Notes: generated by a model not told the origin, from the sequence alone. Positions 22,940 to 45,639 are shown, numbered from the whole stretch's first letter. The stretch is 63,948 nucleotides of DNA, filler included, from Myxococcota bacterium (GCA_049322255.1; 3 parts of 3 records of this genome joined end to end with filler, not necessarily neighbours in it), one strand, 5' to 3'. Program-made: numbers and translations.

Positions 22940-23039
22940 NNNNNNNNNNNNNNNNNNNNNNNNNNNNNNNNNNNNNNNNNNNNTTAATTAATTAANNNNN
23001 NNNNNNNNNNNNNNNNNNNNNNNNNNNNNNNNNNNNNNN
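22940..23039. other. Artificial contig-join linker
   Basis: N44-TTAATTAATTAA-N44; stops in all six frames. Confidence 0.97.
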
Positions 23040-26338: not shown

Positions 26339-27841
26339 TCACCGGGGCTCGATGTCAAAGCGGCGGCAGTAGGCAAGCACCGCCGAGCGTTCCAGCGCGC
26401 TCACCTTGGAGAAGTTTGCATTGGCCTCCACCAACGACTTCTTCCCGCACGCCGCGCGGGTGACGAGCGCGTAGGCGCGAGAGAGGGCGGCCGGAGCCCC
26501 TGTCTGGCCGAGCTCTCGCAGCGCGTTCTTCGCCAGGCGCGCCGCCTCGTCGAAGTCCTCCGCCGCCAGCGCCTGCTCCGCGGGGGCGAGAAGCTCTTTC
26601 AACTTCGCTTCTTGGGCCGCAGTGAGCCGAACCACGGCCGGCACGGGCGGAGGCGGTTTGGTGGGCGTCGTGGGAGCCGGTGGATTGGGCGGCGGCATCA
26701 CCATCGGAGGAGAAGGCGGCGGCGGCAGGCTTCGCGGACGGAGGTACCAACCTCCCGCGGCGAGAATCACCGCGGCCAGCATCGCCGGCCAAAACCAACT
26801 CCGTGGCTTGGGGGGGCTCGCAAGAAGAACAGGGCTGTTCTGCACCACGGGTACGAGCGGGGTGACATGCTTCTGGGACTCCATCGTCTTCCCGAGAAGA
26901 AACGACTCGGTGGTGGCTTGGTGAGGCACCGCGACGCCTCCCTCGGGGCTGGCCCGCTGAAAACCCGTCAGCGGCGCGCCGGTCAGGTCGGCGACGAAGG
27001 CTCTCACGTCCGGGTAGCGCCTGCTGGGGTCCTTTTCCAGCGCCTTCTCCACGGCCTGGAGAACGTTGGGCGGCAGTCCAGGAGCGATGGTCGAAAGCGG
27101 CAGGTGCGGCTCATAGACGACGCGAAAGAGCACCTGGGCGATGCTCGGCGCGGCGAAGGCCGGCTCTCCCCCGAGCATCTCGTAGACGATGGCTCCCAGG
27201 GCGAAGACGTCGGTGCGCTGGTCTACCTCGCTGTTCTTCCCTTGCGCCTGCTCGGGAGACATGTAGCGGGGAGTACCCACCAGCACCTGCTCCTGAGTCT
27301 TCACCGTCTGCGAGCCCTGGACTTTGGAGATGCCGAAGTCGAGCAGCTTCACCTGTTCGGGGGCGCCCGATTCGGGACCGGCGGGGACGAGGAAGATGTT
27401 GTCCGGCTTCAAGTCGCGGTGGACGATGCCCTCTCGATGTACGGCGTCGAGCGCCGAGGCCGCCTGGCGGGCGATGCGCAGCGCCTCCTCCAGCGGCAGC
27501 GGTCCCCGTTGGAGCCGTTGCGCCAGACTCTCCCCCACCAAGTACTCCAGCACCAGGTAGGGGGTGCCGCTGGGCAGGGTGTTGAAGTCGTGGACCTCGA
27601 CGATGTTGGGGTGGCCGATGCGGGTGGCGACCTCCGCCTCGCGGCGAAAGCGCGTCAAGGAGTCGGGATCGGGTTGACCGCCCAGGTGCAACACCTTCAC
27701 CGCCACTTGCTTGCCGGGAAGGCGCAGGTGCCGCGCGGAGAAGACCGTCCCCATTCCCCCGCTTCCGAGAACTCCGGTCACCTCGTACATGCCACCAAGG
27801 ACGGTGCCGAGCTGAACTTCGTGGGCGGGTAGCTCGCTCAT
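26339..27841 (-). CDS. Membrane-anchored Ser/Thr protein kinase
   Basis: GSGGMG, VAVK, HRDLKPDN, DFG, GTPRYMSPEQ, TM helix, Pro-rich linker, helical extracytoplasmic tail. Confidence 0.96.
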   Translation of the reverse strand: MSELPAHEVQLGTVLGGMYEVTGVLGSGGMGTVFSARHLRLPGKQVAVKVLHLGGQPDPDSLTRFRREAEVATRIGHPNIVEVHDFNTLPSGTPYLVLEYLVGESLAQRLQRGPLPLEEALRIARQAASALDAVHREGIVHRDLKPDNIFLVPAGPESGAPEQVKLLDFGISKVQGSQTVKTQEQVLVGTPRYMSPEQAQGKNSEVDQRTDVFALGAIVYEMLGGEPAFAAPSIAQVLFRVVYEPHLPLSTIAPGLPPNVLQAVEKALEKDPSRRYPDVRAFVADLTGAPLTGFQRASPEGGVAVPHQATTESFLLGKTMESQKHVTPLVPVVQNSPVLLASPPKPRSWFWPAMLAAVILAAGGWYLRPRSLPPPPSPPMVMPPPNPPAPTTPTKPPPPVPAVVRLTAAQEAKLKELLAPAEQALAAEDFDEAARLAKNALRELGQTGAPAALSRAYALVTRAACGKKSLVEANANFSKVSALERSAVLAYCRRFDIEPR

Positions 27842-31863: not shown

Positions 31864-31891
31864 TGAGCCGTTTTCTCCTCTTCCGTCCACT
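31864..31891 (+). promoter_or_regulatory. Putative autoregulatory ECF sigma promoter
   Basis: TGAGCCG-N17-CACT ending 10 bp before the sigma ATG; same motif and spacing at 34485-34512. Confidence 0.65.
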
Positions 31892-31901
31892 GAAGAGAAC
31901 A

Positions 31902-32456
31902 ATGAAGCCCTCCCACCCCGCCCTGCGCGTCGTTGCTCCGATGGGCTCGGAGAAAGCGCCGTTCGAGCCGGGTCGGCTGGACACGGTTTTCCGCTATCAC
32001 GCCAGCTACGTCGCGGCGGTGGCGTTCAAGCTGCTTGGCCGTGACGACGAGGTCGACGACGTGGTGCAGGAGGTTTTCCTCGCGGCGACCCAGGGTCTTC
32101 GACAGCTCCGCGAGCCGGAGGCGATCAAGGGGTGGCTGGCGACGGTCACCGTCCGCGTGGCGCGCAGACACCTGCGCAAGCGCAAATTCCTCTCGTTCTT
32201 CGGAGCTTCGGAGAAGCCAGCCCCCGCGGAGCTGATTTCTTCCGACGCAAGCCCACATGACCGCGCGCTGCTCAGCCGCATCTTCAGCGTGCTCGAGGAG
32301 CTGCCGGTGCAGGCGCGAATCGCTTGGACCCTGCGACACGTCGAAGGTGAACGCCTCGAAGCGGTTGCCCGGCTTTGTGGCTGCTCTCTCGCCACCGCCA
32401 AGCGACGAATCGCGGCGGCCCATGAAGTCATAGAAAGGCTGCTCTCCGATGGATGA
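31902..32456 (+). CDS. ECF RNA polymerase sigma factor
   Basis: Region 2 DDVVQEVFL...GWL; region 4 LEELP...VEG..LEAVA.LCGCSLATAKRRI. Confidence 0.93.
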   Translation: MKPSHPALRVVAPMGSEKAPFEPGRLDTVFRYHASYVAAVAFKLLGRDDEVDDVVQEVFLAATQGLRQLREPEAIKGWLATVTVRVARRHLRKRKFLSFFGASEKPAPAELISSDASPHDRALLSRIFSVLEELPVQARIAWTLRHVEGERLEAVARLCGCSLATAKRRIAAAHEVIERLLSDG

Positions 32457-33525
32457 CCTGGCCAAAAACATGGAGCGCGCGCGGAGGTTTGTGCGCTCCA
32501 ACTGGAATGTCGAGCGAGAGCAGACCGTGCAGGGCAAGCTGATTCGACGGGTTCAACGAAGGAAGGCCGTTCGAACGGTCACCATCGCCGCGTCGGTGCT
32601 GGCTCTGTGCACTGTTTCGGCAGCGCTTGGGCTGCGGTTCTTCACCCCCGCCGATCATCGGATGCTCCACCTGCCCGACGGCTCCACCGTGACCCTGGTG
32701 GATGCTGACAGCGAAATCCTCACCTCTCCCTCGACCGACCCCAACCTTTTGGTGGTGCAACTCGTTCGTGGCGGAGCGCGCTTCTCCGTGACTCGAAACC
32801 CGTCCCGGCTCTTCCGGGTGGAAGTGGGGAAGGTGCGGGTCGAGGTCCTTGGGACACAGTTCTCCGTTCGCAAGTGGGAAGAACGCGCCGAGGTCACCGT
32901 CACCAGCGGACGGGTTCGCGTGCAGTGGGCTCAGCACTCCACCGAGCTTGGCGCCGGCGCCCATGAGGTCTTTCCCCCCACGGTGGTCCAAGCCCCGGAA
33001 ACGCATGAGCCAGCGCCGCCCGCGCCCAAGCCGGCCCCACCCAACGCACCCCGCTCATCGGTCGCTCCCGCCTGGCGGACGCTCGCGCAGGAGGGGGACT
33101 TCGACCGCGCCTATGAGCTGCTGCACCAAAAAGGAGCAGCGCCCATTCGTGACGAGCCGGCCGATCTCCTCTTGGCCGCGGACGTCGCACGACTCAGTCA
33201 CCACCCCGAACAGGCAGTCAAGCCGCTGCGCCAACTGCTCCAGCGTCACCGGCGTGACCCTCGCGCTCCCCTGGCAGCCTTTACCCTGGGCCGGCTGTTG
33301 CTCGAAGAGCTCGGGCAACCCAAGGAAGCGGCGCTGGCCTTCCTTGAAGCCCAAGCGCTCGACCCCACCGGAGACCTCGCGCAAGACGCCATCGCCCGCG
33401 AGGTGCAGGCTTGGTCGAAGGCGGGCGAGCTGGCCCGCGCGCGGGAAGGCGCCCAGAAGTATCTGCGGAAGTTTCCCAACGGCCCCAGGCTCGAGGCGGT
33501 TCTTCGGCACGCGGAGCTGGAATGA
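32449..33525 (+). CDS. FecR-domain anti-sigma factor with C-terminal TPR-like domain
   Basis: TM helix; LPDGSTV.L, L.RG.ARF.V, V.VLGTQFSV, V.V.SGRV.V FecR motifs; Pro linker; TPR-like tail ending YLRKFPNGP. Confidence 0.9.
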   Translation: MDDLAKNMERARRFVRSNWNVEREQTVQGKLIRRVQRRKAVRTVTIAASVLALCTVSAALGLRFFTPADHRMLHLPDGSTVTLVDADSEILTSPSTDPNLLVVQLVRGGARFSVTRNPSRLFRVEVGKVRVEVLGTQFSVRKWEERAEVTVTSGRVRVQWAQHSTELGAGAHEVFPPTVVQAPETHEPAPPAPKPAPPNAPRSSVAPAWRTLAQEGDFDRAYELLHQKGAAPIRDEPADLLLAADVARLSHHPEQAVKPLRQLLQRHRRDPRAPLAAFTLGRLLLEELGQPKEAALAFLEAQALDPTGDLAQDAIAREVQAWSKAGELARAREGAQKYLRKFPNGPRLEAVLRHAELE

Positions 33526-34487
33526 GCTCGCCCGCGCTCTCGGCTGTTTGGCTTTGGGGTTTGCTGGCGCTGCCGAACAGGCCTCCCGTCAAGGTGGACA
33601 TCGACGCCTGCGTCGACGTGTCGCGCCCAGCAGTGTTGTCCATCATCGGTATCGAGCTGGGTGCTGCGCTGGCGACGCCGGAGGAGGTCTCGGTGCGGCG
33701 CACCACCGTGGTCGAGGTCACCTGCAAAGACCAGGGGGTAGCGGTACGCGTCGATGATCCACTCACCCACAAAGTCCTCAAACGCTCCCTCGACCTCGCC
33801 AAAGCGGCGCCCGTCACCCACACTCGGCTGCTCGCGCTGGCCATCGTCGAACTGGTGGCCGCCAGCTGGGCCGAGCTGGAGTGGAATCCGGCTCCGACGC
33901 TCGTCGCCCCGGAGGAGCATCCGACCCCGGCAGAACGATTCGAAGCGCTCGAGGCTCTTGGTCCACGGACCCAAGGAACGAGCAAGACCGAGCAAGTCAC
34001 CGGTCTCTTCGGGGGCAGACGGTTCTTCGCGGGTTCACCATGGGCGTGGGGCGGCGGGGCCCGGGTGGGGCGCCACTGGGGGGCAGTTGGTTGGCACTGC
34101 GACCTACTCGCCGAATTCGGCAGCACGGACCTGGCCGTAGGCTCGGTGACGGTGAGCACTGTCAGCACCGGCGGCTCGGTGCTGTTGACGCAGCGCTTCG
34201 CTTGGTTCACCGCGTGGGCGGGTCCTGGCCTAAGAGTCGGTGCAGTCCAGCTCACCGGCAACCCCAAAGCGACGGACATCGTCGGGCACTCGGTCGGCGG
34301 CGGCTGGGGCGGGCCCCTTTTCAACGCCGGTGTCAGTGGACACCCCGGCCGGAGGCTGATCATCGAGCTGTCCGGCGAAACTGGCTACGCCCTTTTCCCT
34401 GTCGTGGGGATGGTGGAAGGGGAGCGCCCTGTCGCGCTCGACGGGGTGTGGCTGGGTGCCCAGCTGTCGGTGGGTCTGGTTCTGTGA
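33522..34487 (+). CDS. Hypothetical exported protein, probable small outer-membrane beta-barrel C-terminus
   Basis: Hydrophobic N-terminus; about eight Gly/aromatic amphipathic strands ending LSVGLVL; ATGA-coupled to the anti-sigma. Confidence 0.7.
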   Translation: MSSPALSAVWLWGLLALPNRPPVKVDIDACVDVSRPAVLSIIGIELGAALATPEEVSVRRTTVVEVTCKDQGVAVRVDDPLTHKVLKRSLDLAKAAPVTHTRLLALAIVELVAASWAELEWNPAPTLVAPEEHPTPAERFEALEALGPRTQGTSKTEQVTGLFGGRRFFAGSPWAWGGGARVGRHWGAVGWHCDLLAEFGSTDLAVGSVTVSTVSTGGSVLLTQRFAWFTAWAGPGLRVGAVQLTGNPKATDIVGHSVGGGWGGPLFNAGVSGHPGRRLIIELSGETGYALFPVVGMVEGERPVALDGVWLGAQLSVGLVL

Positions 34488-34512
34488 GCCGAACGTTTCG
34501 GGTCAGAGCACT
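34485..34512 (+). promoter_or_regulatory. Second copy of the putative ECF promoter, upstream of the VWA lipoprotein gene
   Basis: TGAGCCG-N17-CACT followed by GGAGG RBS and ATG 34533. Confidence 0.65.
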
Positions 34513-34532
34513 AAGGGGCACTGGAGGACATC

Positions 34533-35663
34533 ATGAACCGAGCTTCGTCAAGAGTTGGCATCTGGGGCCCCTGCGCTGCCCTCTTCACCCTCGCGACCAG
34601 CTGCGGCGGCATTCGGGGAGAAGTGCTCGAAAAGCAGCTCTCCGCCGATGCCGGCGGGAGTCCTCCTGTTGAAAACCCAGATTCCGGCACCCCAGACGGC
34701 GGCGCCTCGTGCGTCCCCACCACCGAGGCTGCCAACTATCCAGTCAAGGTCATGTTCTTGGTCGAAAATCGAAGCGCCATGTGCGTGGCGGATCCTCCCG
34801 GGGGTTCCACCTCCGGGCTCTGCCAGCAGTTCGCTCCTCCAGGAGTCACCGAATCGGGGCGAGTGAAGGCTTTGCGCGCATTTAGAGACCAGCATCTCTC
34901 CAATCCGTCCACAAAGGTTGCCTTGCTCACCTGGGACTTGCTCCCTGTCTCGGTCTTGCCGGAATTTTCTGCAGCTGGAAGCCTGACCGACACCGTGCTC
35001 ATGAACCTTCAATCAAACTTGGGCTCGGTATCCGAGACGCAAGGCGCGCTGGAGTCCGCCGTCGCTCGTCTGGAGGCCGACATCCTTGCCTCCGCCGTCG
35101 CCGAACGACAGCGAACCAAGTACGTCATCGTCATCCTGGGGACTGGGGTTCCTTCTCCTCGTTGCAGCGCCAACGATTCCCTGCCAGCGTACGCGAGCGC
35201 CTCGCAACCTGACGGCGTGTGGCCAGACAGCCCTCCCGCCACTGCATCCCTCTGCAACTCGAACCCCGATGGAGGGCTGCCTTCCGCGTGCGATGCGAAT
35301 ACTGGCATGGATCCGGGCGGTAACCCGTGCATCCCCGGTTTCACACCAGGCACCGACCGAAACCAGAACACTCAGCTCTTGGGGCCCATCGACCAACTGC
35401 TCGCGTTCAAAGCCAAATACGGCCTGGGCGACATCCGCGTCCACACGCGCCTGCTCTTCAATAGCTCTACTTTTCAAGCTTGCGGGCCCCTGTGCGACGA
35501 CATCTTCGGAATGCCCCCGAGCGACGCGCGCACCCTCGGGGTCTGGACCCTTCGGCAAATCGCAGAGGGCCACGGCGGTGGAACGTTTGAGGATCCAGGA
35601 GACCCCGCGACTTTGTCTCTCTCCAGCATCGACGTTCGATCGCTGGCCACGTTCTGCCCGTGA
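34533..35663 (+). CDS. Cys-rich VWA-like lipoprotein resembling the N-terminal half of myxobacterial MtsD
   Basis: Lipobox LATSC; PVKVMFLVENRSAMCVADPPG, RTKYVIVILGTG.P.PRCS, GTDRNQN.QL, YGLGDIRVHT.LLFN, ACGPLC motifs recalled from MtsD-type proteins; MIDAS degenerate. Confidence 0.7.
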   Translation: MNRASSRVGIWGPCAALFTLATSCGGIRGEVLEKQLSADAGGSPPVENPDSGTPDGGASCVPTTEAANYPVKVMFLVENRSAMCVADPPGGSTSGLCQQFAPPGVTESGRVKALRAFRDQHLSNPSTKVALLTWDLLPVSVLPEFSAAGSLTDTVLMNLQSNLGSVSETQGALESAVARLEADILASAVAERQRTKYVIVILGTGVPSPRCSANDSLPAYASASQPDGVWPDSPPATASLCNSNPDGGLPSACDANTGMDPGGNPCIPGFTPGTDRNQNTQLLGPIDQLLAFKAKYGLGDIRVHTRLLFNSSTFQACGPLCDDIFGMPPSDARTLGVWTLRQIAEGHGGGTFEDPGDPATLSLSSIDVRSLATFCP

Positions 35664-38569: not shown

Positions 38570-39200
38570 GCCCCAAGTGGTGACGCTTCGGCGTTGCCCA
38601 TCCGCGGCGAGGAGCCGTCGAAAGAGGCGAAGGTCGGAGTCACCTACCGACATGACACCGAACGCAACCGGCCCATTCCGGGGAGCGCGCCGAGCAACTG
38701 CTCTGCGCGGGCGATACCGACGCGCTCTTATCCGAGTTGATGGACTGCGTTCCCCAGGTGGAACGCGGCAGGCGCAACCCAAAAGCAGAGGCCTTGAAGG
38801 CCCTCGACGACTTGGTGCGCTACTACCGGAACAACATGCACCGGATGAAGTACCGGCTCTTTCGCGAGCATGGCTTCCCCATCGCCAGCGGGGCGGTCGA
38901 GAGCGCGCACAAACACGTGCTTCAGTGCCGGATGAAGCGTGCCGGTCAGCGCTGGCAGCTCCACAACGCCCGCCGGATGGCCCATCTGCGCGCCGCCTAC
39001 CGAACCGCCGGCGCGACCGCCTTCTACGACGCCATCCAGCGCGCTCGCCGCGAAACCCAGCGAGGCACTGCCCGACGCGAAGGTCGACGTCACGGTTTCC
39101 GCTTTGCCCGTCAAGGCCTCCGCGACCGCCTCCGGGCCTCAATCTGATCGTCCGCCGCACCAAAACGGAGCACCCCTCGGGGTGCCTTTGCGACCCACCC
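38570..39200 (+). mobile_element. Internally deleted ISKra4/ISLre2-like (UPF0236-type) IS remnant
   Basis: ALPIRGEEP.KEAKVG fragment in one frame, then Y..NN.HRM.Y..FR..GFPIASGAVESAHK.V.Q.RMKRAG.RW in another; end CTTTGCGACCCACCC (39186-39200) resembles a right terminal repeat. Confidence 0.8.
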
Positions 39201-45539: not shown

Positions 45540-45639
45540 NNNNNNNNNNNNNNNNNNNNNNNNNNNNNNNNNNNNNNNNNNNNTTAATTAATTAANNNNN
45601 NNNNNNNNNNNNNNNNNNNNNNNNNNNNNNNNNNNNNNN
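45540..45639. other. Artificial contig-join linker
   Basis: N44-TTAATTAATTAA-N44. Confidence 0.97.

Follow-up and report, generated by a model that had tools for sequence, protein, structure and literature searches.

A conserved myxobacterial sigma factor module with a FecR-TPR anti-sigma factor, a predicted small barrel and a variable lipoprotein

Known cell-surface signalling needs a large TonB-energised receptor. The window analysed here, a 63,948-nt stretch of DNA from a Myxococcota bacterium (GCA_049322255.1), contains a locus with genes for a sigma factor of extracytoplasmic function (ECF) and a FecR-type anti-sigma factor carrying tetratricopeptide repeats (TPR), followed by genes for a predicted small outer-membrane barrel and a lipoprotein. 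It raises the question of how such a pair would receive its signal when no TonB-dependent receptor was found beside it. Our answer, to which we give a probability of roughly 0.55, is a TonB-free cell-surface signalling switch with the lipoprotein as its head.

Gene order, domain content, covariation of a promoter motif with the sigma clade and lipoprotein cargo were compared across related loci, and by these comparisons the four-part module (ECF sigma factor, FecR-TPR anti-sigma factor, predicted eight-stranded barrel and variable lipoprotein) is conserved across myxobacteria. All four open reading frames were confirmed on the plus strand (Table 1); those of the sigma and anti-sigma factors overlap by 8 nt, and those of the anti-sigma factor and the barrel by ATGA. 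A preliminary description had read these genes and overlaps, together with two copies of the motif, from the DNA, and all of them lie where it had placed them. The window joins contigs C66, C69 and C87 of the 4.85 Mb source genome (G000), with N-gaps at 22940-23039 and 45540-45639, so that gene neighbourhoods across the gaps are not real; the module lies on G000:C69.

The conserved triad and its predicted promoter

The sigma factor matches Sigma70_r2 (PF04542, E 3.8e-14) and Sigma70_r4_2 (PF08281, E 3.4e-7) above the Pfam cut-offs and has regions 2 and 4 only, as in FecIRA-type sigma factors. Its relatives, gathered from genomes and metagenomes, number at least 3676 at E ≤ 1e-30 among 8000 scored candidates, and its profile matched 31 of the 301 genomes of the phylum (E ≤ 1e-40). 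One genome, G317, shows a large expansion with 24 matches to the profile at E ≤ 1e-20.

Partners were counted within three genes at the 72 sigma loci that had at least 2.6 kb of downstream DNA. Both the anti-sigma factor and the barrel were present at 60 loci, the anti-sigma factor alone at eight, the barrel alone at two and neither at two. The count was repeated from the barrel side with 40 weaker barrel matches, picked to avoid near-copies: 28 had both partners within three genes, five had the sigma factor, three the anti-sigma factor and two neither, while two gave no barrel call. At least one partner thus accompanies 36 of the 40, and the linkage survives when identity falls below 30% and when the genes are ordered differently. 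Ten genomes were examined because their sigma/anti-sigma pair had no adjacent barrel call; five of these (G310-G313 and G315) have a close barrel gene elsewhere, G314 has seven barrel matches, and in G127 the barrel is adjacent but lies in two frames (L252, G127:C15, where the gene beside the anti-sigma factor is split between them). We consider it very probable that the sigma factor, anti-sigma factor and barrel form a functional triad.

No Plug or TonB-barrel family was detected (E ≤ 1e-8) in the first 320 residues of 100 of the 123 large proteins encoded near these loci, nor in a further 18 scanned whole; the other five are near-copies outside the scan. A receptor could begin with one carboxypeptidase-regulatory domain that lies at the edge of a locus. 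The source genome itself has eight Plug matches and two STN matches, which lie on different contigs and none of them on C69. A sister clade (L213, L216, L220-L222, L230, L232, L234, L236, L238 and L239) has the order barrel, sigma factor, FecR/TPR protein, followed by a conserved gene of 183 aa and preceded by a divergent pair, which at L213, the one locus scanned, is DUF1592/1588 plus DUF1552; no TGAGCC site stands just before the sigma genes of this clade.

The motif TGAGCCG-N17-CACT precedes both the sigma gene and the lipoprotein gene. Two matches were obtained in 1 of 100 shuffles of the window, and a scan of the whole genome with spacers of 16-18 nt gave five matches, of which only these two have N17. 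Because the second copy begins on the barrel stop codon, evidence from outside the window was needed. When the window was kept out of the training of the matrix, the sigma-gene site came first (28.6 bits) and the lipoprotein-gene site third among the 4374 gene-upstream regions of the genome. The strict pattern TGAGC(C/T)G-N17-C(A/T)C(C/T) was then counted upstream of related sigma genes (those that score 140 bits or more against the profile and have 400 nt or more of upstream DNA, without the window). It occurs at 38 of 112 loci, and at 27 of the 43 closest, against 6 of the 4374 regions of the source genome, two of which are the present sites; these background regions are 275 nt long compared with up to 500 nt for the sigma loci. 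Most loci without the strict pattern carry variants of the motif, and a looser pattern is found at 74 of 126 sigma loci (window included) against 60 of the 4374 regions. The spacer is free in sequence and 16-17 nt in length.

In 84 long loci, a matrix built from the sigma sites placed no site before any of the 78 anti-sigma or 66 barrel genes; of the 809 other genes, 41 have one. A lipobox is encoded by 28 of these 41 genes, compared with 101 of the remaining 725, with lipoboxes called by our own pattern and genes by our own caller. The -10 box falls into classes (CAC, CTC, CATT and CATG). Of 27 pairs of a sigma site and a target site, taken from 25 loci, 26 have the same class at both, where 10,000 permutations gave a mean of 10.8 and a maximum of 20. 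It also tracks the sigma tree, changing 8 times against 29.3 when shuffled (quick tree, 74 rows), and three loci (L142-L144) have a variant of their own, which has a spacer of 16 nt and ends in CATG, in front of the sigma gene as well as the short MtsD-like gene. Few residues of ECF regions 2 and 4 are described as reading promoters (PMC7776599). As the -10 variant agrees between the sigma and target sites of a locus in all but one of the pairs, the motif TGAGC(C/T)G-N16/17-C(A/T)C(T/C) is very likely the promoter of the module's sigma factor, a prediction that we hold with high confidence.

The gap between -10 box and start codon is 6-12 nt at 45 of the 74 sigma sites and, among the targets, at 18 of 37, for which leaderless or near-leaderless messages are predicted; in the window the sigma start codon lies 10 nt past the -10 box and the transcript is predicted to start at about 31897-31899. 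The second copy stands 20 nt from the lipoprotein start codon, with GGAGG at 34523-34527 and an expected transcript start at about 34518-34520, and a promoter copy likewise precedes short MtsD-like genes in L138, L142, L143, L144 and L167. At nine loci (L011, L013, L038, L134, L135, L139, L153, L154 and L259) two promoter copies stand back to back, one for the sigma operon and the other for a lipoprotein gene that diverges from it. A LOR/LURP-one-like gene (G000:C40:4080-4694, L278; PF04525 at E 1.7e-4, below cut-off) has, 53 nt upstream, the promoter site that ranks second in the source genome, and is a possible target in trans. A Sigma-70 promoter scan gave 0 sites, and terminator-like sites numbered 4 against 3.2 in shuffles.

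The preliminary description had put forward a promoter motif, a scan of the genome and related loci for it, and a triad in the absence of an adjacent TonB-dependent receptor. The scan found the motif conserved upstream of related sigma genes, specific to the sigma clade and promoter-like, and the triad without Plug-bearing neighbours (among the 118 of 123 large ones scanned) is borne out by the loci counted above.

The anti-sigma factor, the barrel and the lipoprotein

The anti-sigma factor has a 43-residue cytoplasmic N-terminal part without Cys or His, one hydrophobic helix from about residue 44, a FecR domain at residues 70-157 (above the PF04773 cut-off) and then a Pro-rich linker. Its Gly135-Thr136 pair, encoded at 32851-32856, is conserved (Gly in 51/55, Thr in 49/55), and this dipeptide is given as the self-cleavage site in FecR and FoxR (PMC9249621). 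Residues from about 205 to 358 fit TPR models and structures; the TPR models match below cut-off and those of CpoB/BamD weakly, while no other Pfam model matched this region at E ≤ 0.1 and an STN-like C-subdomain was not found in it. Asp245 (54/55), Arg248 (55/55), Arg282 (51/55) and Arg317 (54/55) are conserved within the repeats. In FoxR the C-terminal STN-like subdomain is reported to bind the receptor signalling domain and so to be protected from proteolysis (PMC11637429); the predicted TPRs occupy the place of this receptor-binding subdomain.

The third protein consists of a signal peptide, a periplasmic alpha/beta N-domain (about residues 20-121), a linker helix and a region (156-320) that models as an eight-stranded barrel of OmpW/OmpA type. 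The AlphaFold2 model has a mean predicted local distance difference test score (pLDDT) of 83, and the N-domain folds with a pLDDT of 91. The barrel resembles 3dzm (Z 17.5, root-mean-square deviation 3.2, 159 residues aligned) and OmpW (Z 17.4, 2.7, 166 aligned), as well as NspA, OmpA and OprF, with Z of 16.5-17.5. The protein has no Pfam or NCBIfam match, one of 55 family members matches PF13505 (E 2.7e-4), and a search of the Protein Data Bank sequences with the profile gave nothing below E 0.78. The family comprises 3747 clusters at 50% identity (E ≤ 1e-10) without a Pfam model, its Atlas relatives being unnamed Myxococcota clusters, and its profile matches 61 of the 301 genomes of the phylum (E ≤ 1e-6). 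Conserved residues lie mainly in the N-domain (Cys30/Cys68, Glu45, Arg102 and Glu110). This domain weakly resembles TolB-N, LptE, PqiC, CsgG and TraT, at Z of no more than 7.8 (6.9-7.8 for the first four), which is the chance range, and no STN entry is among the structure matches listed. At L003:8440-12297 an N-domain of this kind is joined to a long unrelated TPR protein, as an assembly chimera or a real fusion.

The lipoprotein has its lipid Cys24 encoded at 34602-34604. Against the MtsD family model NF047639 it scores 194.6 bits (cut-off 800) over profile positions 43-367 of 651; its first Atlas match is a VWA cluster (0.93). A von Willebrand factor A (vWA)-like domain homologous to the N-terminal half of MtsD is present and the C-terminal half of MtsD is absent. 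The source genome also has a full-length MtsD-type gene (644 aa, 34% identical to the lipoprotein in the homologous N-terminal half) with an intact motif in an mts-like operon on G000:C41. The metal ion-dependent adhesion site (MIDAS), defined for CglB and needed for its function (PMC9946355), is lost from the lipoprotein at residues 78-82 (34764-34778), and all seven short MtsD forms aligned lack Asp-x-Ser-x-Ser and the later Asp.

What follows the barrel differs from locus to locus. After-barrel genes have a lipobox in 28 of 48 cases and encode unrelated domains: glycoside hydrolase 29 (GH29), di-haem oxidoreductase, RCC1, beta-helix, vWA or none that we could name. Many of these lipoproteins carry a short N-terminal box, (Asp/Pro/Glu)-(Val/Leu)-(Leu/Phe), placed between +4 and +13 relative to the lipid Cys. 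As a post-hoc pattern it occurs in 17 of 43 after-barrel lipoproteins; none of the 25 promoter targets has it, and among the 163 other lipoproteins five do. Scored with each group left out, it reaches a mean percentile of 0.78 over 29 groups (17 of them above 0.8), and 0.51 for targets. In the window it reads Glu30-Val31-Leu32 (34620-34628), at +7 with Cys as +1, and full-length MtsD does not show it. Unrelated domains behind a shared post-Cys box suggest a swappable sensor head docked on the barrel, and we regard the fourth lipoprotein as at least as likely a sensor head as an output; it may be both the head and the main product. GH29-type fourth genes encode Trp at what we take to be the position of the nucleophile Asp (5/5, all of one clade), while a divergent GH29 gene with a promoter site keeps the Asp. 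L088 and its relatives L055, L086, L091 and L100 are CATT-class modules with a GH29-like fourth gene, which in L088 stands beside GH29, GH2 and GH43 genes in a glycan-utilisation arrangement without a TonB receptor match. The idea that the fourth gene is a paralogue of a local output gene was set aside as not general (6/44).

The small barrel named in the preliminary description is therefore upheld by the model, and its question whether the fourth gene varies is answered by the differing domains. Its MtsD-like lipoprotein stands for the N-terminal half, at a score well under the family cut-off and without the C-terminal half. Its view of that protein as output agrees with the gene's own promoter copy; the lost MIDAS and the box typical of after-barrel genes speak against it.

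A proposed switch and its alternatives

From these comparisons we infer a cycle of docking, shielding, release and feedback. The lipoprotein would dock on the barrel by the short strand after its lipid Cys and present a swappable ligand-binding head; in this locus the head would be an MtsD-type vWA domain without a metal site, so the cue is likely to be a surface protein or contact with the matrix. The periplasmic N-domain of the barrel would bind the TPR groove and shield the anti-sigma factor, the role played in Fec, Fox and Pup systems by the signalling domain of the TonB receptor. Ligand binding would free the N-domain, the anti-sigma factor, self-cleaved at Gly-Thr, would be degraded by Prc/RseP-type proteolysis, and the freed sigma factor would transcribe its own operon and, from the second promoter copy, the head protein, giving positive feedback. 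In relatives, further promoter copies would drive separate output lipoproteins and glycan enzymes. Taken by itself, the role of the barrel as relay is somewhat better supported than the cycle as a whole. If the scheme is right, a small barrel with swappable heads would be a second outer-membrane signalling route and a modular chassis for surface biosensors.

A number of observations weigh against it. An eight-stranded barrel is without a plug and is not known to have an energised step, which leaves the crossing of the signal without explanation. G126 has the pair with its promoter and no barrel was found there, and G053 and G045 have weak barrel matches. The TPR residues are only slightly less conserved where no barrel is adjacent (Arg248 in 13/14 against 115/120), so that co-loss lends no support. 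No lipobox was called in 20 of the 48 after-barrel genes; the box is short, was first chosen by eye and may be inherited with the signal peptide, and 12 of the 29 held-out groups fall below the 0.8 percentile. In the five di-haem-type proteins checked, four from fourth genes and one from a target, both CxxCH motifs are intact, and thus some heads are not dead. The regulon search across the source genome gave one extra candidate, the C40 gene, and no separate strong output gene. Kinship also keeps the loci from counting as independent. On the promoter side, the barrel stop codon supplies the TGA of the second copy, and this copy is the weaker one, ranking 13th genome-wide with the sigma-site matrix when position is ignored.

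These last points, the stop codon and the rank of 13th, speak for a chance or non-promoter repeat. The motif, however, has two conserved boxes, a spacer that is free in sequence but set in length, a constant distance to the start codon and clade-specific variants common to the sites within a locus, which make that explanation hardly credible. A lipoprotein that is purely output, a surface adhesin made when the barrel and TPRs receive the input, would account for its own promoter copy and ribosome-binding site, which its orthologues at L138, L142-L144 and L167 share, for the lack of another strong target in the source genome and for the predominance of lipoproteins among the promoter targets of relatives (28/41). 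We think it unlikely, because the MIDAS that CglB needs (PMC9946355) is lost in 7/7 short forms, because the lipoprotein bears the box that is typical of after-barrel genes and that none of the 25 pure targets has, and because most after-barrel genes have no promoter copy (5/48 do at the score used).

The module might instead sense envelope assembly, the anti-sigma factor being protected while barrel and lipoprotein are assembled and degraded otherwise, as compared with RcsF/OmpA. The weak likeness of the N-domain to TolB-N, LptE, PqiC and CsgG folds and of the TPRs to CpoB/BamD models points that way, and autoregulation would restore the pair; the fold matches, however, are in the chance range. 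Fourth genes and targets that vary by locus (glycosidase-like, di-haem, RCC1, DUF1592/1552, vWA), together with 24 paralogous sigma factors in one genome, fit many specific cues better than a general stress, and this makes assembly sensing decidedly improbable. We also strongly doubt that the barrel is a co-expressed scaffold or output and the trigger a Ser/Thr kinase or a TonB-dependent receptor encoded elsewhere. The contexts described for group ECF267, discussed below, average 1.3-2.7 kinases (PMC7826278), a kinase lies about 4 kb upstream at 26339-27841, the genome has its eight Plug-domain genes, and some loci lack a barrel. Kinases, though, were found by motif at 9 of 59 long loci and at 2 of another 20, over spans shorter than the 10 genes each side of PMC7826278; no STN match lies on a Plug-bearing contig of the source genome, the TPRs replace the subdomain that would bind a receptor, and the barrel linkage persists across divergent sequences and gene orders.

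We therefore prefer the switch with a lipoprotein head, and offer tentatively, at somewhat less than even odds, its extension to a large class of TonB-independent transducers. In these, an eight-stranded barrel with interchangeable surface lipoprotein heads would signal to a FecR-TPR anti-sigma factor. Such heads would have arisen when a docking strand of three residues was grafted onto adhesin domains, lectins and dead enzymes. The present locus would be a variant that senses contact and was built on a cohesion protein, and with a promoter code specific to each clade every regulon could be read from sequence.

Genome context and comparison with known systems

Table 1. Features of the module in the window (all on the plus strand).
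Feature	Position	Strand	Details
Predicted autoregulatory ECF promoter	31864..31891	+	-35 TGAGCCGTTTT, -10 CCACT
ECF sigma factor, 184 aa, ECF267-like	31902..32456	+	PF04542, PF08281
Anti-sigma factor, 358 aa	32449..33525	+	FecR PF04773 and C-terminal TPR domain
Predicted outer-membrane protein, 321 aa	33522..34487	+	signal peptide, N-domain, 8-stranded barrel model
Second predicted promoter copy	34485..34512	+	same motif, N17 spacing
Lipoprotein, 376 aa, vWA-like	34533..35663	+	partial MtsD NF047639 match

At third codon positions the four module genes have a GC content of 0.71-0.79, lower than that of five neighbours (0.83-0.91) and of the genome's full MtsD gene (0.905); the cassette may have been acquired by transfer. 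Elsewhere in the window, a second, unrelated ECF sigma gene lies at a contig end (44963-45484, minus strand), and a 135-aa frame at 38740-39147 has no Pfam match and looks by eye like a transposase remnant. On another contig (G000:C22:186308-188719; L277:2308-4719, minus strand) an exported protein with a barrel-like C-terminal half is encoded with an ECF sigma factor and a single-pass anti-sigma factor that has a Pro-rich linker and TPRs and no FecR domain; for this triad-like set the comparison did not establish barrel homology (probability 1%), and the TPRs match weakly (E 6e-4).

The closest described group is ECF267, a bioinformatic group of the ECF classification 2.0 (Casas-Pastor et al. 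2021), given as 28 proteins from Sorangium and Chondromyces with a FecR-like, TPR-fused anti-sigma factor at +1 and no TonB receptor (PMC7826278). Like it, the present module has a myxobacterial ECF sigma factor with a FecR-TPR anti-sigma factor at +1 and no TonB-dependent receptor nearby. The group description reports promoter motifs as not conserved, suggests control by kinases and names no barrel or lipoprotein (PMC7826278); here, in contrast, relatives run into the thousands, the promoter is conserved, the gene at +2 encodes the predicted barrel, and a minority of loci have kinases. The sigma family is found in 80 of the 101 genomes (E ≤ 1e-35) in the family of a Polyangiaceae metagenome-assembled genome, which is the family of Sorangium and Chondromyces, and mostly with the same triad in the 20 loci viewed. 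ECF267 is thus probably part of this sigma family. The sigma/anti-sigma pair fits the description of that group, and the few genomes behind PMC7826278 may explain by sampling why its promoters appeared not to be conserved. In the searched literature, which most subscription papers lie beyond, ECF267 appears in the classification paper only. TGAGC and GAGCC are absent from the searched supplement text of PMC7826278, and the barrel, promoter, lipoprotein regulon and box were not found in print, in a search that did not extend to logos, tables or data sets in PMC7826278 or PMC7776599. Of the undescribed system proposed in the preliminary description, then, the sigma and FecR-TPR pair without a TonB receptor is already in print as ECF267, and the barrel and promoter are additions to that group's description. 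ECF267-like sigma factors would gain a promoter, a regulon and an input.

Parallels to other parts of the module exist in myxobacteria. DdvS-DdvA of Myxococcus xanthus likewise pairs an ECF sigma factor with a single-pass anti-sigma factor bearing periplasmic TPRs, but DdvA is described with a zinc-binding N-domain and CHAT, where the present protein has a FecR domain and no CHAT (PMC11506125). A precedent is the Myxococcus GltABCHK-CglB platform, in which the vWA lipoprotein CglB is held by outer-membrane barrels that touch a periplasmic TPR protein; a predicted model has CglB docking on these barrels through residues 4-9, its first strand after the lipid Cys (PMC11761067, PMC9946355). The likeness, by description, lies in the vWA surface lipoprotein, the barrels and the periplasmic TPR protein; unlike the present module, the platform is a motility adhesin with a needed MIDAS, is coupled to a motor and has no sigma factor. 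With MtsD, a cell-cell cohesion protein by its family label (NF047639), the lipoprotein shares the homologous N-terminal vWA-like half, and differs in being 376 rather than 644 aa long, in lacking the C-terminal half and the MIDAS, in its new N-terminal box and in lying outside an mts-like operon.

In function the module compares with FecI-FecR-FecA and FoxI-FoxR-FoxA, which also combine an ECF sigma factor, a single-pass FecR-domain anti-sigma factor with Gly-Thr and an outer-membrane partner with a periplasmic N-domain (PMC9249621, PMC11637429). Unlike in these systems as described, TPRs replace the STN-like C-subdomain, the partner is a predicted eight-stranded barrel without a plug whose N-domain was not matched to STN, and the targets are lipoproteins, not receptor and transport genes. 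The module would therefore work like FecIRA signalling while departing from it in two defining features, the STN-like C-subdomain of the anti-sigma factor and a cognate TonB-dependent transducer with STN, in whose place stand the predicted TPRs and barrel.

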